Below are positions 209 through 23,970 of a DNA stretch of 55,747 nucleotides, piece after piece. The translations under genes were made by a program, and so were the position numbers. The DNA is taken from the sequence record DRR723986_5079. The stretch is one strand, 5' to 3'. Each line of letters starts with the position of its first letter. Positions within the stretch are counted from its first letter, which is position 1. The notes beneath the pieces were generated by a model. The model saw nothing but the letters and a program-made list of their open reading frames with translations, was not told where the DNA came from and made no database searches.

Positions 209-2965
209 TCAGCCAGCCCGGGCGGCAACTGAATCGACGCCGTTCATCTTGGCGAGATAGCGGTGGAAGTCGACGCCGGAAAGCGGGCGCGAAAAGCTGT
301 ACCCCTGGATGAGCGAGCAGCCGAAGGAATGGATCAGCTCGCATTGTTCGTGCGTTTCGGCCCCCTCGCACACGACTTCGATATGCAGCGAGCCGGCCAT
401 TGAAATGATCGCCTGAACCAGTGCCTGGCCGTCCACATCCCGCTCAAGGCCCATGATGAAGGTCCGGTCGATCTTGAGCGTGTCGATCGGCAGGCGCTTC
501 AGGTAGCTGAGCGACGAATAGCCGGTGCCGAAATCATCCAGGGAGATCTTGATGCCGAGGTTGCTGATGGCTTCCAGAATTTCGACCGGGTTGACGCGCT
601 GGTCGTCGAACATCACGCTTTCGGTGACTTCCAGCTGCAGACGTGTCGGGTCCATGCCGGTCTCGTCGAGGATTTCTCTCAGCCGAGGCAGGAAATCCGC
701 ATCCCTGCACTGGCGCGGCGAGATGTTGACGCTGATCCCGTCGAGCTGCAGGCCGTTGCGGTTGCAGGACTGGAAGAATTCGCAGGCCTCGCGCAGCACC
801 TGTTCGCCAAGCGGTACGATGAGCCCACAGTCTTCGGCCACCTTGATGAACTCGGTCGGAGGGACGACACCCAACTTGGGATCGGTCCAGCGTGCCAGGG
901 TTTCGCAGCTCACCACGCGGTTCTTTTCATAGTCCACGATCGGCTGGAAATTCAGGTGCAGCTCACCCTTGTCGATGGCTTGCCGGAGGCAGATCTCGAT
1001 CTGGCTTGCGCGGGCGGCCTGTTCATTCATGCGCGTGGCAAAGAACCGGTAACTGGCACCGCTATCGGCCTTGGCCTGCAGCATGCTGGTGTCGGCCTGC
1101 ATCAGCAGCGCTTCCTCGTGTGTGCCGTCGTGCGGGCAGACGGTAATGCCGAGACTGCCGGCAAGCACGGCATCATTGCCGTCTTCCAGTTTGATCGGGT
1201 CGCCGATCGCCTTCAGAATGTCACGGGCGGTCTGTTCGATCTGCCAGCGGTCTTCCGGATTCGACAGGATAATGGCGAATTCGTCGCCGCCCATGCGGGC
1301 CACGGTCTGGTCCGGGCCAAGGGTCCTGGTCAGACGCGCGGCTATGGTTTCGATGACCTTGTCCCCTGCCTTGGGACCATAGGTTTCGTTGACGGTCTTG
1401 AACCGGTCGAGGTCGAGGATCATCAGCGCCGTCAGGTCGCCCATATGTTTGCCGCGCTGGATCGCCTGGCGCAAACGGTCCATGAACAGGCGCCGGTTCG
1501 GCAGACCGGTCAGAATGTCGAAATTGGCATTCTTGGTTGCCAGTTCCTCCTGGCGCTTGCGCTCGCTGATGTCTGTGATGGTGGCGTAATAGGCGCGTTC
1601 CCCGCGCCATTCGGTCAACCGAACATGCTGCTCCAGCCAGATGGTCTCGCCATCCTTGCGGATGCCCTTGACCTCATAGGTGCGCGGAGCGCCTTCGCCG
1701 TTTTCACGCATGTTGTAGTAGCTGCGCAGCCGGCTGTGCTCTTCCGGTGCATAGATCACCAGTGTGGGAGACTCGACAAGCTGCTCGGGTTCACCGGGGG
1801 TGTAACCGCACATTTTCAGCAGGGCGTTGTTCACATAAAGGATGCGATGATTGGCATGGACGAGCACGCCGTGCATCGATCCGTCGATCATGTCCTTGAA
1901 CTGGGCATCGCGGTCACGAACGGATTCAAACGCCGCCTGGAACATGGTCGCCAATTTGTTGAATTCGAAGATAAGCCCGGGCGGCGGCGGCGACACCACC
2001 CTGTCCTGCCGCAGCCCCATCGCGTAGTTCAGCAGCCTGCCCAGGCCGGCCGTGGTGATGCGATTGACCAGAAGCGCTGCACCGATTGCCAGTATCGCCG
2101 TATAAAGCAGGAACGGTGTGAACAGTTGGCTGTAGGTTTCCTCGACCTTTTGCAGGGTGTCCACGGGCTGCTTGATCACGGTCGCAAGCATGTGGCCGTC
2201 CAGACCCTGCATCAGCGGAGCAAAAACGAAAAGGTTCTCTCCGTTCAGCGCGTAATTGACGTCGTCAGGTGTAGCGTAGAGCCGTTCGGGAAGGACTTCC
2301 GTGGTCAGGTCGCCCATGCCCGCCACAACATCCTCATGGTGATAGAAGGCGATATCTTCCACCCGTAGCGCCTTGGCGAGGACACCCGGCAGGGAGAAGG
2401 AATCGGTGATAGTCGTCCCGCCATAAATCCTGCCGAGGACTCGGCCGGTATCGGGATCGAGAACCAGAACAGAGAGCGCTGCAGTGATCTGTATGGGATC
2501 GGAATCATGGTCCGCGTAAGTTACCCAGATGTCGGGCGGCATGGCGGCACGTATCTTCACCGGCAATTGGTGGCTCAGGTCGATCAGGCCGAGACTGCCG
2601 TTTACCCAGCCGTTTTCACTTGGAAGATCGATCAGGAGAATGTCCAGAACCGCGCTGGTCATGCCTTCGGAAGCGCGTTCTATTATGACCTTGGCGGTCT
2701 CCTTGTCGTAGTTCAAAAGAGCCTGCCGGATATCCGGGTGTGCTGCGACCGCGCGGATCTGCGTTTCGAGTTTGTCCAGATGCTGGGTGAAGACGAGCCT
2801 TGCGAGCGTTGCCTTGGATTTTGCGCTGCGGGCAATTTCATGTTCGGCAATCGACAGGCTGCCAAGGTACGTAATCCAGAAGAGCGCGATCGCCGTTCCC
2901 ATAAGGCCGAACGCAAACAGAGCCATGACAAGGCGGCTGAAGGGAATGGAAAAACTGGCCTTCAA
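209..2965 (-). CDS. Membrane c-di-GMP signalling protein: periplasmic sensor (LuxQ-periplasmic/dCache-like) + PAS + GGDEF + EAL
   Basis: Two TM segments flank a ~270-aa periplasmic region; PAS (RKDGETIWLEQ...ITDISERK); RMGGDEF; EAL with ETLARW, EVTES, DDFGTGYSSLSYL, KIDRTF and EGAET. Start moved from 3085 to the TTG at 2965, 7 nt after an AGGAG RBS. Confidence 0.88.
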   Translation of the reverse strand: MKASFSIPFSRLVMALFAFGLMGTAIALFWITYLGSLSIAEHEIARSAKSKATLARLVFTQHLDKLETQIRAVAAHPDIRQALLNYDKETAKVIIERASEGMTSAVLDILLIDLPSENGWVNGSLGLIDLSHQLPVKIRAAMPPDIWVTYADHDSDPIQITAALSVLVLDPDTGRVLGRIYGGTTITDSFSLPGVLAKALRVEDIAFYHHEDVVAGMGDLTTEVLPERLYATPDDVNYALNGENLFVFAPLMQGLDGHMLATVIKQPVDTLQKVEETYSQLFTPFLLYTAILAIGAALLVNRITTAGLGRLLNYAMGLRQDRVVSPPPPGLIFEFNKLATMFQAAFESVRDRDAQFKDMIDGSMHGVLVHANHRILYVNNALLKMCGYTPGEPEQLVESPTLVIYAPEEHSRLRSYYNMRENGEGAPRTYEVKGIRKDGETIWLEQHVRLTEWRGERAYYATITDISERKRQEELATKNANFDILTGLPNRRLFMDRLRQAIQRGKHMGDLTALMILDLDRFKTVNETYGPKAGDKVIETIAARLTRTLGPDQTVARMGGDEFAIILSNPEDRWQIEQTARDILKAIGDPIKLEDGNDAVLAGSLGITVCPHDGTHEEALLMQADTSMLQAKADSGASYRFFATRMNEQAARASQIEICLRQAIDKGELHLNFQPIVDYEKNRVVSCETLARWTDPKLGVVPPTEFIKVAEDCGLIVPLGEQVLREACEFFQSCNRNGLQLDGISVNISPRQCRDADFLPRLREILDETGMDPTRLQLEVTESVMFDDQRVNPVEILEAISNLGIKISLDDFGTGYSSLSYLKRLPIDTLKIDRTFIMGLERDVDGQALVQAIISMAGSLHIEVVCEGAETHEQCELIHSFGCSLIQGYSFSRPLSGVDFHRYLAKMNGVDSVAARAG

Positions 2966-3466
2966 CGAAGCGCTCCTGAACCGGCGGGCATCATCTGACG
3001 GGTAAATCGAACATGACGGGAAGCAAGGCGGCGCGGGGTCCTTCTCGGTTGGAACAACAGGTTGTTGCTGGTCTTGCAAGTACAAGGCACCCGGCGGCGG
3101 GTGTGGACAGCTTCGGGAAAAGACAGGTTGTGACGAACCGATGCGTCCATAAGCACAGTATCATGAAACCTGCCTCCTGTTTTGCAATTGCAAGAAAAAA
3201 CACTTACAGACTCAAACGTAACTGCTCGAGGTTTACCTTTGGTGAATTGGAATGGTGAAGATATTGCCTTTTTATTGTCAATTTAACTTGCTGTTCATCA
3301 ATAAAGTTGGGATTGAGTATAGTAATATTTGACAGGAGCCATTTCTATTGAGTGCTGCTGTCCCCTTGCATGATCGGACGTTTGCCTCCCCCGGCGAAAC
3401 TGGTATACCCCCAATCGTGAAGTGAATTGGGGTCGATTGGCCTATTGCGGAAGACGGAGCCACTTG

Positions 3467-4955: not shown

Positions 4956-4992
4956 GTCCCGCTGCTTCCAGGAGGCAGCGGGACTTGTTTTT
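4956..4992 (+). terminator. Rho-independent terminator after dapB-gpmA
   Basis: GTCCCGCTGC...GCAGCGGGAC stem followed by TTGTTTTT. Confidence 0.8.
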
Positions 4993-5126: not shown

Positions 5127-5144
5127 CTCTCCCATTTGAGGGAG
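5127..5144. promoter_or_regulatory. 18-bp palindromic operator, copy 1 (CTCTCCCATTTGAGGGAG)
   Basis: Matches three other copies at 8794, 12941 and 15225; TAGGCT -10-like hexamer at 5166 after a 21-bp gap. Confidence 0.75.
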
Positions 5145-5204
5145 GGCCGATCTGCAACGCCTCTATAGGCTTCCAGCCGTCGACCACGGTTGGAGCATTT
5201 TTAG

Positions 5205-6128
5205 ATGGCCGAATGCACGAAAGTTTCTTCCCGCTTGCAGAAGCTGGTGCGCAGATCAGGAAAATCCGGACGTTCGCTATTTCAGGCAACTGCAGTTTTT
5301 CTGCTCGGCGCGGTTTCGGCGCAGGCCCAGACAGACCTGACAGCTGAAGAACAGGCCAGGCTGGCCGCAGCCGACAGCGGCCAGGCACCGACTGCCACCG
5401 CGATCGAACTTCCCTTCGAGGAGCCGTTTGACGGCAAGGATCTGGCCGGGCACTGGCAGCTCCTGAATGCTGACAAGGACTCCTTCGTTGTAGAAAACGG
5501 CATCCTGCTTGCGCTCACGAGTGGCGGCAAGAACAGTCTGCGAAATGCGGATACGAACAACATCTTCGAGCTGCAAGGCGTGCCGCCTGAGGGAGACTTC
5601 GATCTTGCTATCAAGGGCAAGCTCGATCCGAAAACCGGTTACGACGAAGTCTGGCTGGGACTTCGGGAAAGTCCGGACAATTTCATAGCAGCCCATCTTT
5701 ATGTGCTCACCAAGGGGTGCGGCCCTGCACTGTTCCTGCGGACTGTCGCCAATCAGCCGGTAATGCCGGAAGGAGAGCCGGTTTTGACCGCCGCCAACCA
5801 CAGCCTGTTTGACGGTCCCATCATCAAGTCCGTTTGCGACAAGGCCGGCCGGCCTCTCGGGGATCAGATCCTGTCGAACCTGTTTGCAGAAGGTTTTGAG
5901 CTGACCCTTTCCAGAAGAGGGTTGCGCTACCGGACCTCCCTGACATTGACCGTTCCGGACAGAGGGGCGCAAAAGCCCGCCGGTCTCGAGACCGTTCACA
6001 CCAACTGGATTGCCCGCATGGCGCCTTTCGGCAAACCGGTTTTCCTGCTTGGCCAGGGCAGCCGCGCCGGCAGCGGTGAAACGCTGGCCGAGTTCGACCA
6101 CTTCAGCATCCGCCGTCCGCAACAATGA
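5205..6128 (+). CDS. Exported hypothetical protein, single beta-sandwich (ConA/lectin-like?) domain paralogous to the C-terminus of the next gene
   Basis: GGAG RBS; signal peptide ending AVSAQAQ; FEEPFDG...W...GDFDL...TKGCG...VCDKAGR...EFDHFSI; ATGA overlap with the next gene. Confidence 0.75.
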   Translation: MAECTKVSSRLQKLVRRSGKSGRSLFQATAVFLLGAVSAQAQTDLTAEEQARLAAADSGQAPTATAIELPFEEPFDGKDLAGHWQLLNADKDSFVVENGILLALTSGGKNSLRNADTNNIFELQGVPPEGDFDLAIKGKLDPKTGYDEVWLGLRESPDNFIAAHLYVLTKGCGPALFLRTVANQPVMPEGEPVLTAANHSLFDGPIIKSVCDKAGRPLGDQILSNLFAEGFELTLSRRGLRYRTSLTLTVPDRGAQKPAGLETVHTNWIARMAPFGKPVFLLGQGSRAGSGETLAEFDHFSIRRPQQ

Positions 6129-8128
6129 GCCCGGAGTTTCCCATGTCTGCTCTTCCCTCTCGGGCACGCGTACTGCGGCTCGTGGTTCCTTTCTCGCTCG
6201 CCCTTTGTGCCGCTTTACCTTCTCATGCTCAGCAAGGTGATGTCGCCGCCGCAGAGAACCTCGTGCGGCTGTTTTATGCCGAACATTCGAAGCGGTTCAA
6301 CGACGGCGATACGCCGCTCCTGAACGACGCTCCGGCCGCAAAGGAGTTCCTCGTCGACGGCCTCGTGCAAGGGGAGCTTCAGGGGATTTTGCAATTCGAT
6401 CCGGTCTATGATGCACAGGACGCGAGCATTTCCGATCTCAGTATCCGGCCCGATCCGGACGCACCCCTCTTGCAGGGTGCTGCCCGGATCCAGGTGACTT
6501 TTACCAACTTCGGAATGCCGCTCCGGCACATCTACACGCTGATAACCGTGCCGGACGGTTCCTGGCAGATCAACGACATCTATTCCGAAACAAATGACTG
6601 GTCGCTGTCCGGTCTCCTGCAGTCCGCCGGTGTCGACATCAGAACGGATCCAGGTTCCGAGATCACGCTCAAGGGCGGTTCAGCGGCCGGGTCCACTGTT
6701 GGATCGGGGCAGACACAGGCTGCAAACGGCGGAGACGCGGTAATACCCGGTATGGAGGAAGGAGACCTTCCCGGAAACGGCCTGTCCTCTGAAGGGAGCG
6801 ACCTTCTGTTCGTTCTGGACGGTTCAGGCTCCATGTGGGGTCAGGTCGACGGTGTTGCCAAGATCACCACCGCGAAACAGGCGCTGACAGGTCTTATCGG
6901 TGACCTGCCGGCTCAGACCAATGTCGGCCTCATGGCCTACGGACACCGCCGGGAAGGGGATTGCGGAGACACCGAGATCCTGTATCCGGTTTCCAACTTC
7001 GATACCGAACGTCTGAAGCCGGTTATCGACGCGATTACGCCTCGTGGAAAAACCCCCATCGCAGCCGCCCTGCAACAGGCGGCTTCCGCCATGCCCGCCT
7101 CCAATCGGCCGGCAAACGTGCTTCTGATTTCAGACGGGCTGGAAACCTGCGGCGGTGACCCATGCGCCGCGGCCAAGGCATTGGCCGAGCGGGGTATCAA
7201 CACCCGCGTCCATGTGGTCGGGTTTGACCTGACGCAGGAGGAGAACCAGGCCCTTCAGTGCATCGCCGAAAATGGCGGCGGCAACTATTACGCCGCCAAC
7301 AATGCCGAAAGCTTCACCGAGGCCGTCAAGCAGGCTGTCGCGGACGCAGGCAAAGCAGCGGAACCTCCCGCACCGGCGCCGGAAGCTGAAGAGGTCGTTC
7401 CGGCCAGCACCCTTGTGTTTGAAGAAACGTTTGACGGCCCGGAGCTGGCAGCCAGCTGGCAGACACTGAATGGAACCGACAGGCTGACCAGGTTTACCGG
7501 AAGTGGCACCCTGTTTGTCTCCGCACTGGGGGGCGACACGATCTACGACAACAAGAACGCGCTGAACCGCCTCGTTCTTGACGAGCCACTGCCTGACGGC
7601 GATTTCGACCTGAGTCTCAAGTTCAAGCTGCATGAACAAAGCGGCCATGAAAGCGTATCGTTGTCGCTGCTGGAGGATACGAACAACCAGATCGGCGCAA
7701 TGGCCTGGATCTGGACGAAAGGCTGCGGTTCTTATCTGAACCTGTCCTTGACCCGCCTCTCCGGAGATCCCGAAGGCAAACCTGAAGTATCGCGTTTCGA
7801 TGTCAATCTGTTCAGCAAGCAGATCGTCAAGACAGTGTGCGACAAGGCGGGCAGAGCTTATGGCAACAAGGTTCTGGAATCGCTTTCGACCGATGGTGCA
7901 CTGCTGCGTCTGAAACGGCGAGGACGTGCGCTTTCCGCTGCCATCGAACTTGAACTGCCCGCTGCTGACGGTCAGGAGGGAGGTCCCTACGTTCTTGAGA
8001 CCGATCCGGTTACAGTACTGCGCCTTGCCGGCAAGCCGAGCGTGCTCGCCGGTCAGTGGAACAAGGCAAAGTCTCAAGAGAGCCATTTCGAGTTCGACAG
8101 GTTTGCAATCGAGCTGGTTTCGCAATGA
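6125..8128 (+). CDS. Exported multidomain protein: DUF3828-like + von Willebrand factor A + beta-sandwich domain
   Basis: Signal peptide (LPSHAQ); FDPVYDAQD and WQINDIY (DUF3828/YbjP-like); MIDAS DGSGS, GKTPI, LISDGLETCGGDPC, HVVGF; C-terminal repeat of the domain in 5205..6128. Confidence 0.85.
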   Translation: MSPEFPMSALPSRARVLRLVVPFSLALCAALPSHAQQGDVAAAENLVRLFYAEHSKRFNDGDTPLLNDAPAAKEFLVDGLVQGELQGILQFDPVYDAQDASISDLSIRPDPDAPLLQGAARIQVTFTNFGMPLRHIYTLITVPDGSWQINDIYSETNDWSLSGLLQSAGVDIRTDPGSEITLKGGSAAGSTVGSGQTQAANGGDAVIPGMEEGDLPGNGLSSEGSDLLFVLDGSGSMWGQVDGVAKITTAKQALTGLIGDLPAQTNVGLMAYGHRREGDCGDTEILYPVSNFDTERLKPVIDAITPRGKTPIAAALQQAASAMPASNRPANVLLISDGLETCGGDPCAAAKALAERGINTRVHVVGFDLTQEENQALQCIAENGGGNYYAANNAESFTEAVKQAVADAGKAAEPPAPAPEAEEVVPASTLVFEETFDGPELAASWQTLNGTDRLTRFTGSGTLFVSALGGDTIYDNKNALNRLVLDEPLPDGDFDLSLKFKLHEQSGHESVSLSLLEDTNNQIGAMAWIWTKGCGSYLNLSLTRLSGDPEGKPEVSRFDVNLFSKQIVKTVCDKAGRAYGNKVLESLSTDGALLRLKRRGRALSAAIELELPAADGQEGGPYVLETDPVTVLRLAGKPSVLAGQWNKAKSQESHFEFDRFAIELVSQ

Positions 8129-8763
8129 GGATTCGTCCTCGCCGTGCTTGTCTGGCCTTCGTAATCCCCTGGGTCCTGTCGGAAGCTGTCTTCGCGCAGG
8201 GTCCAGGCGTCCAGGCCCCAGGTGTCGAAGACCTCGAATGTGCGGCGGGGTATGGCTGCCAAGGCGTTTCATCTTCGCAATGCGACGTCCTGGCGATGCT
8301 GGGCTTGATGACGACGGGAGAGGCCCGGGACCTGTTCGCCCAGGCATATCCCGCACGGTTTACGGAGGTGGCAAGAAACGCAGACCTGCCACCGACCGAA
8401 TGCCTGCAGGCTGCCGGTTCCGGTATAGGCACCGGCGCATCGCCGAATGGCAGCAGTGCACAAGCCTTGCCCGACTTCGCAAGTCTCGACGGGTTTTCAG
8501 AGGCACCCTGCCCGGGCAAAGTGTCCGTCGATCCGATCTTCGTGCAGGGGCAACCGGACATCCGGGTGCTCGCCTGTTTCAAGGGAGCGGACAATCGCTA
8601 CAGCGAATGCGGCAAGGCAGCGGCCCGTGCCTATTGTCTGAAATTCGGTCAACCGGACGTTGCCTGTTTCGGCGACATCAAGCTCGTCGGCAAGGCCGCC
8701 ACTGTCGACGCCTATTGCGAAGCTGGCGGGTGTCCCGCTTTTGGTTTCATTGTCTGCAAATAA
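8125..8763 (+). CDS. Exported cysteine-rich hypothetical protein
   Basis: ATGA overlap with the VWA gene stop; signal-like N-terminus ending AVFAQ; 12 Cys in the mature part, C-terminal CGKAAARAYC...CEAGGCPAFGFIVCK. Confidence 0.72.
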   Translation: MRIRPRRACLAFVIPWVLSEAVFAQGPGVQAPGVEDLECAAGYGCQGVSSSQCDVLAMLGLMTTGEARDLFAQAYPARFTEVARNADLPPTECLQAAGSGIGTGASPNGSSAQALPDFASLDGFSEAPCPGKVSVDPIFVQGQPDIRVLACFKGADNRYSECGKAAARAYCLKFGQPDVACFGDIKLVGKAATVDAYCEAGGCPAFGFIVCK

Positions 8764-8793
8764 GCGTCATCCGGTGCCGGAACCGCATCGATG

Positions 8794-8811
8794 CTCACCC
8801 AAATGGGAGAG
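8794..8811. promoter_or_regulatory. 18-bp palindromic operator, copy 2 (CTCACCCAAATGGGAGAG)
   Basis: Same motif; CAGTCT hexamer at 8833 after a 21-bp gap; 70 bp upstream of ATG 8881. Confidence 0.75.
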
Positions 8812-8880
8812 GCTTCAGCCGGATCGAAACGTCAGTCTTGCGTCATCGACATGTCTCGCCAACAAGACCGGAGACTGAAA

Positions 8881-9288
8881 ATGCGGAAGATTTGGATGAT
8901 ACTTTTTCTGGCATTGGGGACGAGTTTCCTGCTGCCAACCTTTTCGGCGCAGGCCAAGACGATCTGCACGATCCAGGCGGAGAGCGCTTTCAGCAAGGGT
9001 CACAAGACCCGGGCCGGTGCCGAGGCAAGAGCCTGGGTAAACTGGCAAGGCAAGATGAGGAACAGCCATGGACGCCGGTTTGCCGTTTCCATGGCGCGGG
9101 TGACAAAAGGCTATCCCAAGTTCGATGGCACCCGGTTTAACCACAGGGTGGTGGTTCGCGCCCAGGGTTGCTACGTCAAAGGCGTTTCCTGCCTCACCGG
9201 CACGGGTATCACCCCTTCCTGCGAGTGCCAGAGCGACCGTCGCGCCGCCTTGAAGCAGGGATGTTCCGTCTACGCTGCTGGCAGGTGA
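8881..9288 (+). CDS. Small exported basic Cys-rich hypothetical protein
   Basis: GGAG RBS; Sec signal MRKIWMILFLALGTSFLLPTFSAQA; 6 Cys and many Lys/Arg in the mature part. Confidence 0.78.
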   Translation: MRKIWMILFLALGTSFLLPTFSAQAKTICTIQAESAFSKGHKTRAGAEARAWVNWQGKMRNSHGRRFAVSMARVTKGYPKFDGTRFNHRVVVRAQGCYVKGVSCLTGTGITPSCECQSDRRAALKQGCSVYAAGR

Positions 9289-9331
9289 CAGGCGGTAGGA
9301 ATACTTCCCGAATGGAATGCGTGCGGACGGT

Positions 9332-11137
9332 CTATTTCAACCAGCCGACAGGCCCGGCCATCAGCCGGGCCACAAGCTCCGACTGACTGTGCACGCCGAT
9401 CTTCTGGAAACTCTTTTTAAGATGCCCGCGGGCCGTGCTGACCAGAATTCCCTGGTTGTCTGCAATCTGGTCCAGCGATCGTCCTTCGGCGATCTCGAGG
9501 GCAATCTCCGCTTCTTTGCCGGTCAGGCCATAGGCCAGTTCGATCAGGGTCTTTCGGGTTTCGGAGGTGTCTTCGCCGGTCTGCACCCTCAACAACAACA
9601 AGCTGGCAGGCCCGTGCCTTTGAAGGCTGGTCTGTTTGAGGGCGGCAGGAAAAAACTGAAAGCCGACAGGCTTGCCCTCATGGACAATCAGTCTTTCCCC
9701 GTTCTGGCGAGAAATGACTGCCGCTTCGTTTTCTGCCAGCAGCGACTTTACCCGTGCCTTCGCGGTTTCTTGAATTTGACCAGCGTCGTCCTGCGGCAAC
9801 AGGCCCGAGAGCGATGTTTCGAAGGCGCCGTTGCAATGCAGGAGGTCGTTTTGCCTGTCCAGCAGGGCAACACCGATCTGCAGCCGCTCGATCACGCTTT
9901 CCAGAAGAACGCCGAGCGTCGCGCTCATCATGACCTGCTTGTTCAGGTTGAACGCCCGTTCCCAGTGCGGCATCAGCCGGCTGATGCGCTCGTGCAGTTC
10001 CTCCTCGTTGACGTTCCCGGAGAGTTCTGCCTCATGGATCATCCGGTAGATGATTTCCGTCCATCGGCTGTCGTCGTCGATGGCGTTGTAACAGAGCTCG
10101 ACAAGTTCATCCGGCTCCAGCTGCCGTGCGCCGGTTTCGCTGATCCGGTTGAGGATGTCCGAGGCAAGCTCTTCCACACCGACTTCCCTGATATCGGCCT
10201 CAGGGCGTCTGTTTTTCTGGACCCAGTCTAGGATCCGTCGGCTGATCGAGAATTTGTCCTCTTCCAGGAACAGCGCCGACCGGGCTCCGTCGACACGTTC
10301 GGAGGCAACGTCCTCAATGCCAATCCGCGACAGAAAGCGCTGGATGGGCGGCAGGAAACCGCCGTCGCGGAGCATTGCATCCTCGCCGCCGAAGACAACA
10401 AGGCACCGCGTGCCCGGTTTCATCTGAGCGTCACGCGGCCACGACCACGCACTGAGCATGCCTTCGAAAATCTGCTTCCAATATGCGGGTGTCGGTGTCG
10501 GCCAGCCATGCGGGTCTTCCAGGACCTGCTGAATGACGCGGTGATCCGTACTCATGACATCGGCAAGGTGCCTGCGATCCTTCAGGTGCGCGCCAAGGAA
10601 GGAATAGAGATGGTGCAGGGTCTGTTCGTCGGGCGTATCCGCCCCTTTCAGGCGGATTCGAACCTCGGCAAAAGTCTTGCCGAACAGGGCCAGCGTCTTC
10701 TGGTTGGGCGGCGGCGAGATGAACACGATGTGCCGGGCAAGGTCCGGCCAGGACTTCATGACTTCCAGGGTCAGCAGGGCGGTGATATTGGGAACGACGA
10801 TCAACCGGTCCTGCCAGGGCGTGTCCTCAAAGCTTCGCTGCAGCAGGTGCCGCATGTCTTCTACAGCAGATTTCCAGCCGTCTCGCGGATCCAGGTGCCC
10901 GGCAATCGAGGTCTTGTCGAAACTCTTGCCGTGTCCCCGGATATCGCCGGAGTGGACGTCCCAACCGGAGGCGCGGAACCCGGCTGCGAGTGGCTGCAGC
11001 ATTCCTGAATGCGTTGGTTGGCTATGGCCCAGGAAAACGGTTCTCTTTCCCGAATAGAGACGGCGCGTCATGTTGACGGGCCAATGACGGTAATAAAGCG
11101 AAGGCCCGTCAGGTCTCGGTAGGTATTTTGCTTCCAT
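9332..11137 (-). CDS. LuxR-family regulator with an N-terminal degenerate alpha/beta-hydrolase (lysophospholipase-like) domain and a PAS-like middle region
   Basis: N-terminal YYRHWP...GHSQPTHSG...DIRGHGKS...DGWKSAVEDM hydrolase scaffold; C-terminal YGLTGKEAEIALEIAEGRSLDQIA...STARGHLKKSFQKIGVHSQSELV LuxR HTH; start taken at MEAKYL. Confidence 0.85.
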   Translation of the reverse strand: MEAKYLPRPDGPSLYYRHWPVNMTRRLYSGKRTVFLGHSQPTHSGMLQPLAAGFRASGWDVHSGDIRGHGKSFDKTSIAGHLDPRDGWKSAVEDMRHLLQRSFEDTPWQDRLIVVPNITALLTLEVMKSWPDLARHIVFISPPPNQKTLALFGKTFAEVRIRLKGADTPDEQTLHHLYSFLGAHLKDRRHLADVMSTDHRVIQQVLEDPHGWPTPTPAYWKQIFEGMLSAWSWPRDAQMKPGTRCLVVFGGEDAMLRDGGFLPPIQRFLSRIGIEDVASERVDGARSALFLEEDKFSISRRILDWVQKNRRPEADIREVGVEELASDILNRISETGARQLEPDELVELCYNAIDDDSRWTEIIYRMIHEAELSGNVNEEELHERISRLMPHWERAFNLNKQVMMSATLGVLLESVIERLQIGVALLDRQNDLLHCNGAFETSLSGLLPQDDAGQIQETAKARVKSLLAENEAAVISRQNGERLIVHEGKPVGFQFFPAALKQTSLQRHGPASLLLLRVQTGEDTSETRKTLIELAYGLTGKEAEIALEIAEGRSLDQIADNQGILVSTARGHLKKSFQKIGVHSQSELVARLMAGPVGWLK

Positions 11138-11289
11138 GCGCAGATCTCGTCTTAGAACCACATCTGCCCAATGTGTCAAAATTCCCCTTGCAGACGCCCG
11201 CCGCGAGACTGCAGCAGAAAGCCGCCGTTGCAAATCTATGAAAATCCATAGGGTCTGGCTGCAAAAGCGGCGTTTCATGCCGAGTGCCC

Positions 11290-12309
11290 TTATTCGACGG
11301 TATTCTTGAGAGAGAACTTTGCAGCCTCGAACTCGGTCAGCAGGTCGGCGAGATGTGCATCGACCCGGTCCGGATGCGCGTTGGCACCGACAAGCTTGTC
11401 CTGCGCCAGAAAGAACAGGACATCGTCGTCAATCACGAAGCCGACGGTGTGATACCGCTGAAGCAGATCGAGCAGGGTGGCCTGAGTAGCAGGCGTCAGG
11501 ATTCTGAGAACGGCAAGGTCCGTATCCGCTCCGGCACCGTTTGAACAGGAAACATGGAATGCTTCGTTGAAGGCGATGGACTCCGTCTTGATGTCCCGAT
11601 CCAGAGGGCCCTTGTGGAAGAGGTTCTCCGGTCGCACTGCGGCCCGGACGCCTGTCTTGCGGCCAAGTTTGTAAGCGCCCAGGAGGGAGTAGAACACGCC
11701 GAAGCCCCCTCGGCCGCCACGGGCGTCACGCCTCAGGGCAGGATTCGCCGCAAGGCCGGCTTCCATTTCCATGGCACCGATTGCGACCCAGAACGGCAAT
11801 CCGTCGTTGCTGCTTGTACCCCAGAATTCGCCATCGAATTGGGCACCGACAAAGGATCCGACCTGAAGCCTGGTCAGTTCCGGGACGCGGTCTTCCACGG
11901 CAAGCGCCCTTTCGGATTTGACCAGGTGCGTTCGGCGATCCGCGCCGTCCGATGTCATGACGGTGCCGAATTCGCGCACGCGCTCCATGAGCTTGCCGGT
12001 GTAGCTCCAGCCTTTCCTGCGTGCGAGTTCGACCCGGCGCTTCAGCTGTCGGCCGTCCCTGTTTTCAAGCTCCCCCGCCAGAAACATGAGCGCGAACATC
12101 ACGGTCGTGACCGCAACAGGCACAAACGGAAAGCCGTCCGTCCAGAAGCCCTGCACCATGGTCCACAAAAGGGCAAGGATCGCCCCTATCGGCAGCATGC
12201 GTCGGACCGGAGCCGGCAGAACAACACCGGATCGGATGTCGGAGACATCGGGGGTCTCCACGGAGATTTCACCCTTGATCGGGTCCCAGTGCGTGACGCG
12301 CCCACTCAT
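11290..12309 (-). CDS. Membrane protein (2 TM), DUF3137-like, LemA-associated
   Basis: Two hydrophobic helices; DIKTESIAFNEAFHV...LRILTPA motif typical of DUF3137-type LemA partners; ATGA-coupled to the lemA-family gene. Confidence 0.65.
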   Translation of the reverse strand: MSGRVTHWDPIKGEISVETPDVSDIRSGVVLPAPVRRMLPIGAILALLWTMVQGFWTDGFPFVPVAVTTVMFALMFLAGELENRDGRQLKRRVELARRKGWSYTGKLMERVREFGTVMTSDGADRRTHLVKSERALAVEDRVPELTRLQVGSFVGAQFDGEFWGTSSNDGLPFWVAIGAMEMEAGLAANPALRRDARGGRGGFGVFYSLLGAYKLGRKTGVRAAVRPENLFHKGPLDRDIKTESIAFNEAFHVSCSNGAGADTDLAVLRILTPATQATLLDLLQRYHTVGFVIDDDVLFFLAQDKLVGANAHPDRVDAHLADLLTEFEAAKFSLKNTVE

Positions 12310-12881
12310 GACGGCGCTCTTGTCAGGTCGATTGGCGGTACGGCTTCAGCGGATTTCAACTGGTCTGCATTGAGTGTGAAAAACGCTGCCCGCTCGAAGC
12401 CGAGGAGCGAGCCGACCCAACACGAAGGGATGGCATCCAGCAGCGTGTTGTAGCGATCCACATTGCCGTTATAGAGCCGGCGCGCGGCACTGATCTGATC
12501 CTCGGTTTCCTCCAGCTGTTTTTGCAGTTGAAGGATGTTTTCCGTCGAAGTCACATCAGGATGATGTTCCGTGTAGCCAAGGAAGGTGCTCAGCCCCGCG
12601 GTCAGGTCGCCTTCGGCCCGTTCGATGTCTTCCAGGCTGCCCTGCCGGACCGCAATCGCCTTCTCCCGCACGTCCAGAAGACGGTCGAAGACATGGTTTT
12701 CCTGACGGATGGCGGAGCGGACCGTATTCACCAGCCCGGGAATAAGGTCATGCCGCCGCTTGAGTTGAACCTGAATGCCCGAACGCCCGTTCGCAACGGC
12801 ATTTCTGGCCGCTGCCAGGCGGTTTTGCAGGTAGACGAACCCGCCAAGGCTCATGATCAGTAGGATGAAAAGCGTCGTCAT
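12306..12881 (-). CDS. lemA: LemA family protein
   Basis: N-terminal TM; IQVQLKRRHDLIPGLV and LEETEDQISAARRLYNGNVDRYN LemA signatures; GGAG RBS. Confidence 0.9.
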   Translation of the reverse strand: MTTLFILLIMSLGGFVYLQNRLAAARNAVANGRSGIQVQLKRRHDLIPGLVNTVRSAIRQENHVFDRLLDVREKAIAVRQGSLEDIERAEGDLTAGLSTFLGYTEHHPDVTSTENILQLQKQLEETEDQISAARRLYNGNVDRYNTLLDAIPSCWVGSLLGFERAAFFTLNADQLKSAEAVPPIDLTRAPS

Positions 12882-12940
12882 GCATGTCTCCGGAAAACCC
12901 ATGTCCGGAAGACAACAGAACAGTTGGGGTGACACGCGCC

Positions 12941-12958
12941 CTCTCCCATTTAAGGGAG
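12941..12958. promoter_or_regulatory. 18-bp palindromic operator, copy 3 (CTCTCCCATTTAAGGGAG on +)
   Basis: 17/18 identical to copy 1; 60 bp upstream of the lemA start on the minus strand. Confidence 0.75.
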
Positions 12959-13002
12959 CTTGAAAACGTGAAAGGCACAGGACACCTTTTCCACATTCCT
13001 GA

Positions 13003-13761
13003 CTAAGGGGAAATCAGCCCGTTGAGCAGCGCGATGGCAATTGCCTGTTCGCGGGTCGCGGCGCGAAGTTTTGTGCGGGCGTTCTTGAGATGAAGTTCGA
13101 CGGTAACCGGCCGGAGGCCGAGCTTGTCTGCAATCTGCTTGCTGCGCAGGCCTTGCGCGACCCAAAGGAGGCATTCCTTTTCCCTCGGGCTCAGCGCGAT
13201 GTCCCTGTGCTCGTTTTCCAGCGCGGCCTGCAGGCGCTGGTGCGCAAAGAAGGCTGTCAGGCGGAGCAGGTCGGCATGTTCTGAAAATATCTTCTCGATT
13301 TCGTGGCGCGGCAGGCTTGAACCGAGGTTCCAGCCACCAGCTCCACCAGGCCCGGCTTGCCGCACGATACAGGACATGCCGGCACGCATGCCGGTTTCTC
13401 CAGCTTCCTGAATGAGTTGGCGCTGGGCGGCGCACAGATACGGGTAGTCCGATAGATAGTCGATACCCGTCCCCATAGGAGTAGTCGAGGTGCAGCAGTA
13501 GGCAAAGAAGGGGTCGATCCGCTCATAGGCGGCGGCGCGGTAATGAGAGGTCCAGCTTTCCGGAAAGGTGGTGAACATCGACAGACCGGCCATCGTGCGG
13601 TCGATGTAAATGAGCTTGTCGAAGCCAAAGGATTCGAAGAATTGCGCACTGGCTGTCCAGGCACTGTTGGAAGAAATTCCTTCAGGCAATTTCTCGATCA
13701 AACTGGGCGGCACTGCGTCTGTCCAAGCATAAACTATGGTTTTCCATATATTGGAGATCAT
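13003..13761 (-). CDS. LuxR solo: autoinducer-binding domain + HTH
   Basis: FPESWTSHY...YERIDPF...GMRAG autoinducer domain; LSPREKECLLWVAQGLRSKQIA...TVELHLKNARTKL HTH; no luxI in the window; exact start uncertain. Confidence 0.88.
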   Translation of the reverse strand: MISNIWKTIVYAWTDAVPPSLIEKLPEGISSNSAWTASAQFFESFGFDKLIYIDRTMAGLSMFTTFPESWTSHYRAAAYERIDPFFAYCCTSTTPMGTGIDYLSDYPYLCAAQRQLIQEAGETGMRAGMSCIVRQAGPGGAGGWNLGSSLPRHEIEKIFSEHADLLRLTAFFAHQRLQAALENEHRDIALSPREKECLLWVAQGLRSKQIADKLGLRPVTVELHLKNARTKLRAATREQAIAIALLNGLISP

Positions 13762-13861
13762 AGGGTGCCGGGTTACATCGGACAACGGTTAGAGTTCACG
13801 GGGATTTTTACCTGACCAGGGCCCGTCGGACGGAAAACGTTTTCGAGGGGCTGCTTCTGGC

Positions 13862-15187
13862 GTGACAGGCACGGGATCACAGACAATCGTCCTTGGAACG
13901 CTTCTGTTGGGGCCATTGGTTTACGCGTTCTGGCGCAGCCGCAAGGGAACGCGTGCAGACTACATTTTCAACTCGGGCCGAACGGGTTTACTGGCCACGG
14001 TCGCCGGTATCATCTGCGGTAACATCGGCATCGGTACATTCGTTGCACTGGTGCTGTTTTCCGCGGCAAGCCCGGTCATCGGCCTGTCACTCGCGCTGGC
14101 TTACGGCACCGGGCTGCTGATGTGTGCCCTTGTCGCTCCGGGTGTGCACAGACTGTCGCAAAAATACGGGGTAAGAGGACTGATCGACCTCATCGTGGTC
14201 ACCCACAAGGTACGGCATCCGATCCTGATATGGGGGCCGGTTGCCTTTGTCTTTCTTCTGCGGGCCTCGGTACAATTGATTGCCCTGGCCGTTATCCTGA
14301 CGGCTGTCCTTCCAATCCCGCCGCTTGCGGCAGTCGTGCTCGCAACATTCTTTGCAGGGGCCTATACGGCGATTGGCGGCTACAGAGTGGCAACGGAAAC
14401 CGACATTCCGCAGGCCGTGGTCATTCTCGTCGGCATTGCGATCCTCGGGATGTGGAACATGGAAGCGCCTTCGCGGGAGCTCGTGTTTTTCGACCTTGGT
14501 CCCTACCGCTTTCCGATCCTGATCGGCATCTGGCTGTTCATACCGGCAAGCGCTGTTCTGGCAGTCGACAACTGGCAGCGGATGGCGACCGCACGCGAGC
14601 CGTCGGTTGCCCGGAGCGCATTCCTGCTCGGAGCCCCGATATGCCTTGCGGGATACCTCATTATCGTCTGGCTCGGGCTGCACAGCATGCCTGGCGGGGA
14701 CGTGATGCAGATCCTGCACACGTCGGTGCCGCAGACCTGGACATGGCTTGTCGACCTGATGCTCATCGCCGTGGTGATGTCGACGATGGACACGTTCGTG
14801 ATGCCGCTGATGGCCGGTCTGGAACGGACAGAACTGTCGCTGGGGAGATTGCAGCTTATCGTTGCCGCGCTGTTCACGTTGCTCGGTCTTTCAGCGGCCT
14901 TGTTCGCGGATGTCCTGAACTCGATCATTTCCGCCTTCAGTTCGCTGGCGGTGTTCTTGCCGGTTGTCTGGGCATCGGTTCGCGGCCGGCGTGTGAGCGC
15001 GCCGGCGGCAATCGTGTCCCTGAACGTCGGGATCGCGGTCACCGTGCTGCTGACAACAGTGGACCTGAATTCCGCGGCGTTGGCTGGCTGTCTTCTGTCC
15101 TGGCTGCTGTATGAGACAGTGTCACGCCTTGCCCCGGGCCAGTCCCTGGCGCTTCGCAAGGTTGCTGAAAGAGACGCGGGAGCTTGA
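13862..15187 (+). CDS. Sodium:solute symporter-like membrane transporter
   Basis: About 12-13 hydrophobic segments; NIGIGTFV, YTAIGGYRVATETDIPQ, WQRMATA and AVVMSTMDT resemble SSS-family motifs. Confidence 0.75.
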   Translation: MTGTGSQTIVLGTLLLGPLVYAFWRSRKGTRADYIFNSGRTGLLATVAGIICGNIGIGTFVALVLFSAASPVIGLSLALAYGTGLLMCALVAPGVHRLSQKYGVRGLIDLIVVTHKVRHPILIWGPVAFVFLLRASVQLIALAVILTAVLPIPPLAAVVLATFFAGAYTAIGGYRVATETDIPQAVVILVGIAILGMWNMEAPSRELVFFDLGPYRFPILIGIWLFIPASAVLAVDNWQRMATAREPSVARSAFLLGAPICLAGYLIIVWLGLHSMPGGDVMQILHTSVPQTWTWLVDLMLIAVVMSTMDTFVMPLMAGLERTELSLGRLQLIVAALFTLLGLSAALFADVLNSIISAFSSLAVFLPVVWASVRGRRVSAPAAIVSLNVGIAVTVLLTTVDLNSAALAGCLLSWLLYETVSRLAPGQSLALRKVAERDAGA

Positions 15188-15224
15188 CGCTTCGCCGCCT
15201 AAGTAACTGCGATTTCCGTTCAAG

Positions 15225-15242
15225 CTCTCCCATATGGGACAT
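15225..15242. promoter_or_regulatory. 18-bp palindromic operator, copy 4 (CTCTCCCATATGGGACAT)
   Basis: Same motif; TACTCC hexamer at 15264 after a 21-bp gap; 60 bp upstream of ATG 15302. Confidence 0.72.
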
Positions 15243-15301: not shown

Positions 15302-15769
15302 ATGAAATACGCCTACGCTCTTGCAGTTGGCCTTCTGCTGGGTTTGCCGGCAGAATTTGCGACAGCACAGTCGCGCTCCAATGAGGGAGTGACAGGTCAA
15401 CCACAAGCCTGTCCGTTCAACCATCCTGTTGGTTGCTTCATCAAGACCGGTTCCAAGGGGCCGGTGAAGTCCGTCTACTTCTTCAACGACTACAAGCAAA
15501 ACCGGTGCGGGGTTCATACGCAGGTTTGCCCGGAGGGGCGCAAGTGCTTCACGCGCACGGAGAAACTGAGCCTGAACACCGCGACGGGAGAATTCTATTC
15601 AAGCCGGATCAATGGAGCGGTCACCGTGACGAACAGTTACGGGTTCTCCACCAAGACGATTGGGTCCGGTTATCCCGCCTTCATGCGGGCGAAGGTCAAA
15701 TATGTCGGGAAAAACGGCAAGGCGAGAACCAGCACATTGTCCTTCAAGGCGTCGTCTGAAGGGTGCTGA
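15302..15769 (+). CDS. Small exported basic Cys-containing hypothetical protein
   Basis: AAGGAG RBS; Sec signal MKYAYALAVGLLLGLPAEFATA; 6 Cys. Confidence 0.78.
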   Translation: MKYAYALAVGLLLGLPAEFATAQSRSNEGVTGQPQACPFNHPVGCFIKTGSKGPVKSVYFFNDYKQNRCGVHTQVCPEGRKCFTRTEKLSLNTATGEFYSSRINGAVTVTNSYGFSTKTIGSGYPAFMRAKVKYVGKNGKARTSTLSFKASSEGC

Positions 15770-22927: not shown

Positions 22928-22995
22928 ACGGTGCCCTTTCCCGCAGGCTGATGACGTCACCGCAGGCACCGCCTGCATCAGCTACGGGGAACAAC

Positions 22996-23970
22996 ATGTC
23001 CATGAAATCTGTCACGCGACGCTTCGTTCTTGAAGGACTGGCATCGGCCCCCGCGATCGGCGGGGCCGTATCCATCGTTATGCAACCGACCCCCGCCACG
23101 GCGGAAGAAATCAGGGGAACAAGCCAGATGACCGCGCAATTCGTTACCACCGCAGACGGCACCGAAATCTTTTACAAGGATTGGGGTCCGAAAAATGCCC
23201 AGCCGATCCTGTTTCACCACGGCTGGCCGCTATCTGCCGATGACTGGGACGCCCAGATGATGTTCTTTCTGGCGAAGGGGTACCGGGTGCTGGCGCACGA
23301 CCGGCGCGGCCACGGCCGTTCGACCCAGACATTCGATGGCAACGAGATGGACACTTACGCCGATGACGTGAAGGCGCTGGTGGAAGCGTTGGACCTGCAA
23401 AACGTCATCCACGTCGGCCACAGCACCGGCGGTGGTGAAGTGGCCCGCTACCTCGGCCGTCACGGCACAGCCCGTGCTTCAAAGGCCGTGCTGCTTGGCG
23501 CTGTGCCGCCGTTGATGGTCAAGACAGCGGCCAATCCGGGCGGTCTGCCGCTGGAAGTGTTCGACGGTTTCCGGGAAACCTTTCTGGCCAACCGTTCGCA
23601 GTTCTTCCACGATATTCCGGCAGGGCCGTTTTACGGTTTCAACCGGCCGGGTGCCGTTGTCAGCCAGGGCATCATCGACAATTGGTGGCGCCAGGGCATG
23701 ATGGGGGGAGCAAAGGCTCATTACGACTGCATCAAGGCGTTTTCCCAGACCGACTTCACGGAAGACCTGAAAAAAATCGATATCCCGGTTCTGGTCATGC
23801 ACGGCGACGACGACCAGATCGTCCCGATCGGGGCCTCGGCGCTGGAAAGCATCAAGCTGCTGCCGAAGGGCACGCTGAAGGTCTATGAGGGGCTGCCGCA
23901 CGGCCTTGCAACGACCCATCCGGACATCGTCAATCCCGATCTTCTGGAGTTCTTCGTCCAGCCGGCGTGA
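22996..23970 (+). CDS. Non-heme chloroperoxidase/perhydrolase-type alpha/beta hydrolase with a possible Tat leader (alternative start 23128)
   Basis: [48 protein letters not shown]; upstream in-frame SVTRRFVL. Confidence 0.9.

Follow-up and report, generated by a model that had tools for sequence, protein, structure and literature searches.

A putative one-component regulator that joins a degenerate alpha/beta-hydrolase domain to a LuxR-type DNA-binding domain

Plants and animals offer well-known examples of enzyme folds that have been reused as receptors, and in bacteria it is mostly other folds that have been put to such use. In plants the alpha/beta-hydrolase fold serves as a hormone receptor in GID1, D14 and KAI2, with a cap that closes over the ligand; D14 and KAI2 keep the catalytic triad and hydrolyze their ligands slowly, and all three proteins signal through recruited partner proteins. 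PqsE, a separate protein of metallo-beta-lactamase fold, is a hydrolase-fold partner that modulates RhlR. Here we describe a gene located at positions 9332-11137 (minus strand) of a 55,747-nucleotide stretch of marine bacterial DNA from sequence record DRR723986_5079 (the whole of this stretch is referred to as the window), whose 601-residue product combines an alpha/beta-hydrolase domain lacking the catalytic serine and histidine with a PAS-like domain and a LuxR-type helix-turn-helix (HTH), and which we propose, with moderate confidence in the explanation as a whole, to be a cytoplasmic one-component transcription regulator.

The closest bacterial concept is the RsbQ/RsbP-PAS pair, described as a bipartite sensing module present in Bacillus subtilis and in 45 homologous pairs (PMC3183031). 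There RsbQ is a separate protein, the product of an adjacent gene, whose Ser-Asp-His triad is strongly conserved and indispensable for signalling, and the outputs described for the module are PPM phosphatases, histidine kinases and diguanylate cyclases (PMC3183031). A hydrolase fold and a helical connector, together with a PAS domain there and a PAS-like one here, make up the input of RsbQ/RsbP and the proposed input of our regulator, the output being exchangeable in RsbQ/RsbP; unlike RsbQ/RsbP, the regulator described here has its hydrolase fused, the hydrolase is of the Hydrolase_4/monoglyceride-lipase type and has lost the triad, and a LuxR HTH serves as output. The closest pseudoenzyme precedent is ABHD5 (CGI-58), described as a regulator with a capped alpha/beta-hydrolase fold in which the serine of GxSxG is replaced by asparagine, non-catalytic as a lipase and controlled allosterically by long-chain acyl-CoA (PMC9694394). 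The same Ser-to-Asn change at the elbow is found in our regulator; unlike our regulator, ABHD5 is eukaryotic, keeps the Asp and the His, acts through contact with ATGL and perilipins, and has no fused DNA-binding domain.

The LuxR-type receptors for acyl-homoserine lactones (AHL), among them TraR, SdiA and RhlR, place a GerE HTH on palindromic boxes near promoters, and the regulator described here is without the Autoind_bind domain (PF03472 was absent from it in a Pfam search down to E = 1). The PqsE-RhlR pair is similar in that a hydrolase-fold partner modulates a LuxR-type protein, but PqsE is separate and of a different fold, while GID1, D14 and KAI2 are functional analogues that have no fused DNA-binding domain. 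A literature search, with subscription journals outside its coverage, returned no published account of a hydrolase-LuxR fusion. The regulator family appears to be undescribed, and the kind to which it belongs, an enzyme fold reused as regulatory input, is already known. In the source databases the proteins are labelled 'serine aminopeptidase domain-containing protein' or 'alpha/beta hydrolase', hydrolase-type labels that conceal a regulator family.

A first-pass annotation of the window had placed the gene at 9332-11137, and both the interval and the start are borne out by the relatives. The enclosing open reading frame (ORF) runs from 9332 to 11278 on the minus strand (648 residues, stop codon at 9332-9334), and the Met equivalent to the ATG at 11137 is the start in 16 of 40 aligned sequences; because the closest relatives, which are among these 16, begin at the matching Met, we take the 601-residue start at ATG 11137 to be correct. 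From the N- to the C-terminus the protein consists of a monoglyceride-lipase-like alpha/beta-hydrolase domain, a conserved helical region, a PAS-like domain and a LuxR/GerE HTH. Hydrolase_4 (PF12146) matches residues 31-293 (E 1.4e-14, 54.5 bits against a cut-off of 27) and GerE (PF00196) residues 538-589 (E 2.4e-6, 27.5 bits against 23.5); the PAS profiles stay below threshold (PAS_8, 13.8 bits against 21.8; PAS, 13.8 against 22.6).

Residues 1-300 (10238-11137, minus strand) have the alpha/beta-hydrolase fold, apparently in a non-catalytic form, with a cap at approximately residues 145-235, as judged from Pfam, from an AlphaFold2 model and from Foldseek. The AlphaFold2 model of the regulator, built on 40 relatives, has a mean predicted local distance difference test score (pLDDT) of 86.3 and a predicted template modelling score of 0.75, with block means mostly above 90 in the hydrolase domain. 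It contains the eight-strand core (strands at 2-6, 14-19, 33-36, 60-64, 111-116, 136-140, 244-250 and 276-282) with the cap, whose helices lie in 147-230, inserted after strand 6. In a Foldseek search of the PDB monoglyceride lipases rank first, with template modelling (TM) scores of 0.68-0.78 normalized on the target, led by the human enzyme (3hju, E 5.7e-13) and followed by that of M. tuberculosis, Rv0183 (6eic), and related esterases; none of the Foldseek matches listed for the hydrolase domain is described as D14, KAI2 or RsbQ. A PDB sequence search with the hydrolase domain alone found nothing at E 0.01 or better, and the family profile matched monoglyceride lipases in the PDB over residues 5-74 only.

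The first-pass annotation had seen in this domain a lysophospholipase-like scaffold with degenerate catalytic motifs, and each of the motifs that it named is found in the translation: the scaffold motifs D65-I-R-G-H-G70 and D86-G-W88...V92-E-D94 are present, as are the segment LVELCYNAIDDDSRW and, beyond it, LMPHWERAF, and the three degenerate motifs read as it gave them. The nucleophile elbow, GHSMG in catalytic relatives, is V115-P-N117-I-T119 (10781-10795, minus strand), with Asn117 in place of the serine; the oxyanion-hole dipeptide, HG in catalytic relatives, is H38-S39 (11021-11026, minus strand); and the ARHE of relatives is A285-R-S287-A288 (10274-10285, minus strand), with Ser287 in place of the histidine. 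The position of the catalytic acid is retained as D253 (10379-10381, minus strand). In the AlphaFold2 model these residues occupy canonical places, Asn117 being the first residue past strand 111-116 and opening helix 117-129, which is the canonical elbow position, while D253 follows strand 244-250 and S287 follows strand 276-282. Of the features of a catalytic serine hydrolase, then, the nucleophilic serine, the histidine and the oxyanion HG are absent, and the acidic aspartate is present.

The same losses are seen throughout the fused family when it is compared with its 37 nearest standalone hydrolases (approximately 310 residues each), the fused-family denominators being the sequences in which the column in question is aligned. 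At the nucleophile column the fused family has Asn in 82, Gly in four, Thr in two and Ser in one of 89 sequences, against Ser in 37/37 standalone proteins; at the second oxyanion residue it has Ser in 70, Thr in seven, Gly in seven and Ala in two (n = 86), against Gly in 37/37; and His persists at the catalytic His column in 1 of 88, against 37/37. The acid column, on the other hand, is Asp in 86 of 87 fused-family sequences and in all 37 standalone ones. Asn117 and Ile118 are invariant in the 40 full-length aligned relatives. The assignment of these columns does not depend on remembered motifs, because the 37 nearest standalone hydrolases without exception show HG, G/A-x-S-x-G, D and R-H-E there. 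The check for which the first-pass annotation had called, loss of Ser and His across orthologs, thus came out in its favor with an intact outgroup, and the finding that it had named as a sign of mere decay, orthologs that keep GxSxG, is not what the alignment shows; because the loss of the triad is family-wide, the regulator cannot be read as one decaying copy.

Where else such a domain occurs was examined with an exhaustive HMMER search of 1.84 billion representative proteins, using residues 1-300 as the query. The 25 matches at E 1.3e-22 or better were all proteins of approximately 565-653 residues or short fragments, and after a clear gap standalone proteins of 300-330 residues followed from E 1.9e-13, at 21-28% identity. 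Both Pfam domains were present in 68 of the 73 matches of a word-based search, the five exceptions being shorter (354-531 residues) and four of these lying on contigs of less than 8 kb, and in 11 of 12 divergent representatives. On the sequences covered by these searches, the dead hydrolase domain would seem to occur only in this fusion.

The domain is also well conserved. It has a mean pairwise identity of 52%, with 26% of its columns at least 90% conserved, and a ratio of nonsynonymous to synonymous substitution rates (dN/dS) of 0.060, calculated, as are all the ratios given here, against the ortholog of Stappia sp. (locus L001), which is 90% identical in amino-acid sequence. The corresponding values are 54%, 31% and 0.032 for the cap, 52%, 27% and 0.038 for the helical region 341-419, 55%, 28% and 0.090 for the HTH, and 34%, 11% and 0.209 for the PAS-like part; dN/dS over the whole regulator is 0.09. 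The hydrolase domain is therefore level with the HTH in conservation and the cap at least equal to it, the PAS-like part being the least conserved folded region, and purifying selection acts strongly on the dead hydrolase domain. Given that the serine, the histidine and the oxyanion glycine are lost while the domain is kept, canonical ester hydrolysis would be gone and the domain would serve as regulatory input; that it is non-catalytic by the canonical mechanism is part of the explanation that we favor, by a modest degree of conviction, on these alignments.

In a quick maximum-likelihood tree of the N-terminal 330 residues (41 of 93 family sequences and 12 of the 37 standalone ones, rooted at the midpoint) the fused proteins part from the standalone proteins with 100% support in the Shimodaira-Hasegawa-like approximate likelihood ratio test, and the Ser, Gly and Thr variants are nested within Asn-bearing branches. 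These sequences would be most simply explained if the triad was lost once, early on, in a protein that was already fused. Within the fused family the metagenome representatives P0078, P0083, P0087, P0088 and P0080 form a divergent subclade, which keeps the HG and has an elbow of the form G-Q-S-I-S-G or G-G-G-x-S-G without the His; P0080 has Thr at the nucleophile position, keeps the His and, at 565 residues, gives no GerE match. This subclade could represent intermediate or alternative states of the pocket. Two regulator paralogs, one from each clade, are found in Nitratireductor sp. B36 (L013 and L022) and in Fulvimarina sp. MAC3 (L030 and L032), and the copy examined from Roseibium aggregatum (L036) is of the distant type, at 41% identity. 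The only gammaproteobacterial member, P0032, from a record named Ferrimonas balearica, is 88% identical to P0031 of Pseudooceanicola sp., which points to a recent transfer or to a mislabelled or contaminated assembly, and L028, a 1.5-kb contig of coverage 0.88 in a cyanobacterial assembly, looks like contamination.

The C-terminal half begins with the conserved helical region, residues 341-419 (9881-10117, minus strand), which carries the motifs LVELCYNAIDD..RW and LMPHW.R.F.LN.Q and ends in a long helix; the AlphaFold2 models place helices at 321-419, the final one of approximately 40 residues. It is followed by the PAS-like domain, residues 420-520 (9578-9880, minus strand), modelled as an alpha/beta unit with five strands in an order that fits PAS, and by the LuxR/GerE HTH, residues 535-595 (9353-9535, minus strand). 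In the HTH, T568, R570 and H572 are invariant and align with the recognition-helix segment of solved GerE-type domains, and the family profile matches the solved DNA-binding domains of VraR, LiaR, NarL and GerE at E 9.5e-9 and weaker. Modelled separately, the last 290 residues (pLDDT 77.9, with 55-88 in the PAS-like part) gave VqmA-DPO (7dwm, E 6.2e-4) in Foldseek, together with EL222 (3p7n), VqmA (6ide), SdiA, TraR and RhlR; the VqmA and EL222 matches have E values of 6e-4 to 3e-3 but TM-scores of only 0.2-0.3. VqmA and EL222 share with the regulator the layout of a PAS-type domain followed by a GerE HTH, at these low TM-scores, but they are proteins of approximately 190-250 residues that sense with the PAS domain alone, whereas the regulator adds a 300-residue pseudo-hydrolase and an 80-residue helical region in front. 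The PAS-like segment and LuxR HTH of the first-pass annotation can accordingly be retained, the former because its strand and helix order fits in spite of sub-threshold profiles, and the latter with a score above the Pfam cut-off; the label 'PAS-like' is a reasonable one for the modelled unit, and because of the TM-scores it falls short of proof. A word-based search with the C-terminal 291 residues gave four matches, of which P0012 and P0074 are shorter proteins of the fused family, a result that is no proof that standalone forms are absent, and a search of the ESM Atlas with residues 335-525 returned unnamed clusters only.

It had also been suggested in the first pass that a palindrome regulon, with the gene product as its likely activator, lies around the gene, and the regulon itself is supported by a conserved box found at four units and syntenic across genera. 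Reading of the intergenic regions revealed an 18-bp palindrome with the consensus CTCTCCCA-WW-TGGGAGAG, of which the window holds four unstranded copies. Box 1 (CTCTCCCATTTGAGGGAG, 5127-5144) lies 61 bp upstream of the ATG of orf307 at 5205, its center at approximately 69 bp; Box 2 (CTCACCCAAATGGGAGAG, 8794-8811) lies approximately 70 bp upstream of the ATG at 8881 of a 135-residue secreted protein, its center at approximately 78 bp; Box 3 (CTCTCCCATTTAAGGGAG, 12941-12958) lies upstream of a LemA-DUF3137 gene pair, and probably serves the regulator gene too, its center 47-68 bp from the LemA start; and Box 4 (CTCTCCCATATGGGACAT, 15225-15242) lies 60 bp upstream of the ATG of orf155 at 15302, its center at approximately 68 bp. 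In each of these four flanking transcription units the start codon is thus preceded by a box whose center lies 47-78 bp away. With up to three mismatches allowed, the consensus has these four sites in the 55.7-kb window, all within 5127-15242, against 0.37 expected from first-order Markov shuffles (maximum two in 30 shuffles). Scans for perfect palindromes were discarded as a means of finding the box, having missed the copies because the box centers are imperfect.

For comparison we assembled 38 loci around relatives of the regulator (488.5 kb, with flanks of 6 kb on either side). The core CNCCCAWWTGGGNG with at most one mismatch has 68 sites in this set, against 6.1 expected, and is present in 25 of the loci. 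Boxes occupy the same intergenic positions in Stappia, Hoeflea, Maritalea, Nitratireductor, Mesorhizobium, Pelagibacterium, Pseudooceanicola and Roseovarius: Box 3 is syntenic in L001, L003, L004, L005, L007, L009, L010-L013, L015, L016 and L017, Box 2 in L001-L009 and L017, and Box 4 has its equivalent in L001 at 2389. In the closer clade (L001-L017 and L026) the boxes stand before LemA/DUF3137, before orf307 and the von Willebrand factor A (vWA) gene, and before small secreted proteins. The distant clade, approximately 40% identical and often without the vWA cluster, has palindromes of the form TCACCCAWWTGGGTGA up to approximately 320 bp upstream of the regulator gene in L018, L019, L020, L021 and L034, and weaker ones of the TCACCCAWWTGGGTGA type in L027, L033 and L037. 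HTH residue 571 is G in the near clade and T in the distant clade, and the outer positions of the box read CTCT... in the one and GTCA... in the other. The paralog locus L022 carries a box pair of its own, GTCACCCAAATGGGTGAG and CTCACCCAAATGGGTGAC. Across the 38 loci no DNA-binding protein other than the regulator is conserved in the cluster, and given the neighbor counts (an AHL-type LuxR in 2/38) it is the sole DNA-binding protein that travels with the box. These sequence comparisons suggest that its HTH most likely binds the box as a dimer.

The genes behind the boxes form a compact putative regulon. Downstream of Box 3 a LemA-family gene (12309-12935, minus strand, with the start likely at 12881 or 12902; Pfam LemA, 6.7e-38; present in 20/38 loci) is the first gene of a putative operon, and it is followed on the same strand by a gene for a DUF3137-like protein (11290-12309, minus strand; a sub-threshold match, E 3.2e-4, 21.0 bits against 26.1; 22/38 loci), directly upstream of the regulator gene. 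We take LemA and DUF3137-like proteins to be families of membrane proteins, and a literature search on LemA/DUF3137 found nothing related. In Stappia sp. L001 (4628-4833) the box and the DUF3137-like gene are only approximately 140 bp apart, and nothing in that space matches LemA. Behind Box 1 lies a putative box-controlled operon of orf307, a 667-residue secreted vWA protein and orf212 (5205-8763, plus strand), in which the orf212 ATG at 8125 overlaps the vWA stop; orf307 and the vWA protein are each found in 19/38 loci. The product of orf307 (5205-6128, plus strand) is homologous to the C-terminal third of the downstream vWA protein (6125-8128, plus strand), tblastn with orf307 matching both places in 19 loci, and neither region matches any Pfam family. 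Box 2 precedes orf135, the gene for the 135-residue secreted protein (8881-9288, plus strand; convergent with the regulator gene), and Box 4 precedes orf155, which encodes a 155-residue secreted protein (15302-15769, plus strand); neither belongs to a named family. Signal-peptide-like N-termini are present in orf307, the 667-residue vWA protein, orf212, orf135 and orf155. For orf307, orf212, orf135 and orf155 no informative name emerged from searches of NCBIfam, Pfam and PADLOC, and PADLOC found no defence-system match among nine cluster proteins.

A 441-residue divergent sodium:solute-symporter-like transporter (13862-15187, plus strand; Pfam SSF 1.1e-4, sub-threshold; 20/38 loci) accompanies the regulator in both clades and in the distant clade is encoded directly downstream of it; it has no PDB relative at E of 1 or better. 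Between this gene and Box 3 lies the gene for an AHL-type LuxR protein with Autoind_bind and GerE domains (13006-13785, minus strand), which looks inserted into the conserved cluster because only two of the 38 loci have it, L001 and, at 30% identity, L033. The box cluster is bounded on its left by a strong terminator-like hairpin at 4956-4984 (plus strand; 13 pairs, nine of them G-C, and a T-run), which lies between a histidine-phosphatase gene and Box 1. Elsewhere in the window, a separate alpha/beta hydrolase (22951-23970, plus strand; Abhydrolase_1 4.1e-32, Hydrolase_4 7.2e-21) is encoded 12 kb away, with no link to the regulator seen, and a 958-residue protein with LuxQ-periplasmic-like, PAS, GGDEF and EAL domains (209-3085, minus strand) is not conserved beside the regulator in other loci.

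The core of the first-pass annotation, that a LuxR-type regulator linked with a palindrome regulon carries a hydrolase fold which is conserved but not catalytic, is thus sustained by the family alignment, the selection analysis and the synteny of the box. Because the catalytic residues are lost and yet the domain is strictly conserved, the hydrolase fold has probably been reused as a sensing or control module, and we lean, somewhat more than not, towards a one-component and probably autoregulated regulator in which the pseudo-hydrolase domain is that module. A dimer of the regulator would occupy the box through its C-terminal HTH and control orf307-vWA-orf212, the 135-residue secreted protein, LemA-DUF3137 (and through it the regulator gene) and the 155-residue secreted protein. 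The pseudo-hydrolase, its cap above all, would be the input, with a small molecule held in the old active-site cavity under the conserved cap, and from there the signal would pass by way of the conserved helical region and the PAS-like domain to the HTH. The sites bound by class II activators, of which LuxR is one, overlap the -35 region, and because the position of the box would fit such an overlap we lean to activation, with positive autoregulation. Box binding, dimerization, the ligand in the old pocket and the direction of regulation are steps that we infer. The monoglyceride-lipase ancestry suggests an ester or lipid-like ligand, which we regard as a possible but rather unlikely choice; other ligands are plausible too, given that so many of the conserved residues are polar and that the SSF-like transporter persists as a neighbor.

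Several observations weigh against this interpretation. CTCCC-N6-GGGAG by itself occurs at chance level in the window (four sites against 3.08 expected, with at least four in 39 of 100 shuffles), and the argument from the box therefore rests on the extended consensus and on synteny across genomes. The core-pattern box is missing in 13 of the 38 loci, and 11 of the 38 have none of the conserved neighbors. A gap of 152 bp separates the DUF3137-like gene from the regulator gene, and their co-transcription is assumed; a promoter and terminator scan found no terminator-like site in this gap, and its promoter matches were not above chance (two found against 2.0 expected). The regulator is probably co-transcribed with LemA-DUF3137 from Box 3 and hence autoregulated. 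Finally, polar or charged side chains are frequent among the residues conserved in the hydrolase domain, which fits a protein interface or a polar ligand as well as it does a lipid pocket, and the PAS-like domain is present as a second possible sensor.

The last two points lead directly to the alternative that survives best, although we think it unlikely: that the PAS-like domain senses the ligand and the dead hydrolase, holding no small molecule, is a protein-protein module for oligomerization, docking of a partner or restraint of the HTH. The C-terminal part does resemble VqmA and EL222, PAS-plus-HTH receptors that sense a ligand or light on their own, the charged and polar residues conserved in the hydrolase domain are such as occur at an interface, and a hydrolase fold with the Ser-to-Asn change is able to act as a protein co-activator in ABHD5 (PMC9694394). 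Conservation, however, runs the other way, since among the folded parts it is lowest in the PAS-like domain (identity 34%, dN/dS 0.21, 11% of columns at 90% or above) and highest in the cap over the old active site (54%, 0.03 and 31%). Moreover, ABHD5 is itself regulated by long-chain acyl-CoA (PMC9694394), and for this reason the protein-module reading and the ligand-binding reading of the pseudo-hydrolase are compatible.

A second alternative, which we consider improbable, assigns the box to another regulator, either the AHL-type LuxR protein encoded at 13006-13785 or an unlinked factor, the targets of the pseudo-hydrolase regulator being elsewhere. Palindromes of 18-20 bp are the kind of site used by AHL-type LuxR proteins, the 18-bp box falls within this range, and a gene for an Autoind_bind-GerE protein adjoins Box 3 both in the window and in Stappia L001. 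Against this, such a protein is encoded in just two of the 38 loci; of the 25 loci that carry the box only L001 encodes one, and L033, the other locus with such a gene, is without the box. In addition, distant-clade loci in which the remainder of the cluster is absent have related boxes a short way upstream of the regulator gene.

It is more doubtful still that the hydrolase domain remains enzymatic through non-canonical chemistry and makes or processes a signal for the PAS-like domain, as has been proposed for RsbQ/RsbP-PAS. Asp253 is kept in 86/87 and His38 in 84/86 aligned family sequences, and a hydrolase beside a PAS domain is a known sensing module in RsbQ, where the hydrolase activity is required (PMC3183031). 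However, the nucleophile, the His and the oxyanion Gly have all been lost together, and the nucleophile column varies among Asn, Gly, Thr and Ser within the family, which makes it unsuited to a catalytic residue. His38, His43 and Asp253 are found in the catalytic outgroup as well, and are for that reason better regarded as ancestral structural residues than as a new triad, and the Hydrolase_4 score, at E 1e-44 to 1e-46 in the standalone enzymes, drops to 1.4e-14 here. That the gene is a decaying fusion or pseudogene without function, for which the missing triad is the sole argument, can be dismissed given the intact reading frame of 601 residues, the same substitutions in 40/40 aligned relatives, the family-wide counts and the low dN/dS (0.09 overall, 0.06 in the hydrolase domain).

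The preferred reading, a one-component regulator with the pseudo-hydrolase as its sensing or control module, admits a broader interpretation that we offer tentatively: the family may be a new class of bacterial one-component receptor that uses an alpha/beta-hydrolase pseudoenzyme as its ligand-binding module, a counterpart of GID1, D14 and ABHD5, through which an ester, a lactone, a lipid-like signal or a solute of the SSF-like transporter would switch on a regulon of secreted vWA proteins and proteins of unknown family in marine Alphaproteobacteria that live in association with surfaces or algae. The case lends itself unusually well to tests, in that a regulator, what is probably its operator (at four sites within 10 kb), an apparent loop of autoregulation and a small regulon of secreted proteins of unknown function are found together. 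Several genera of marine Hyphomicrobiales and Rhodobacterales share the regulator and this putative regulon, and, if the interpretation is true, bacteria too would have taken the alpha/beta-hydrolase fold into use, as the input to a transcription factor.

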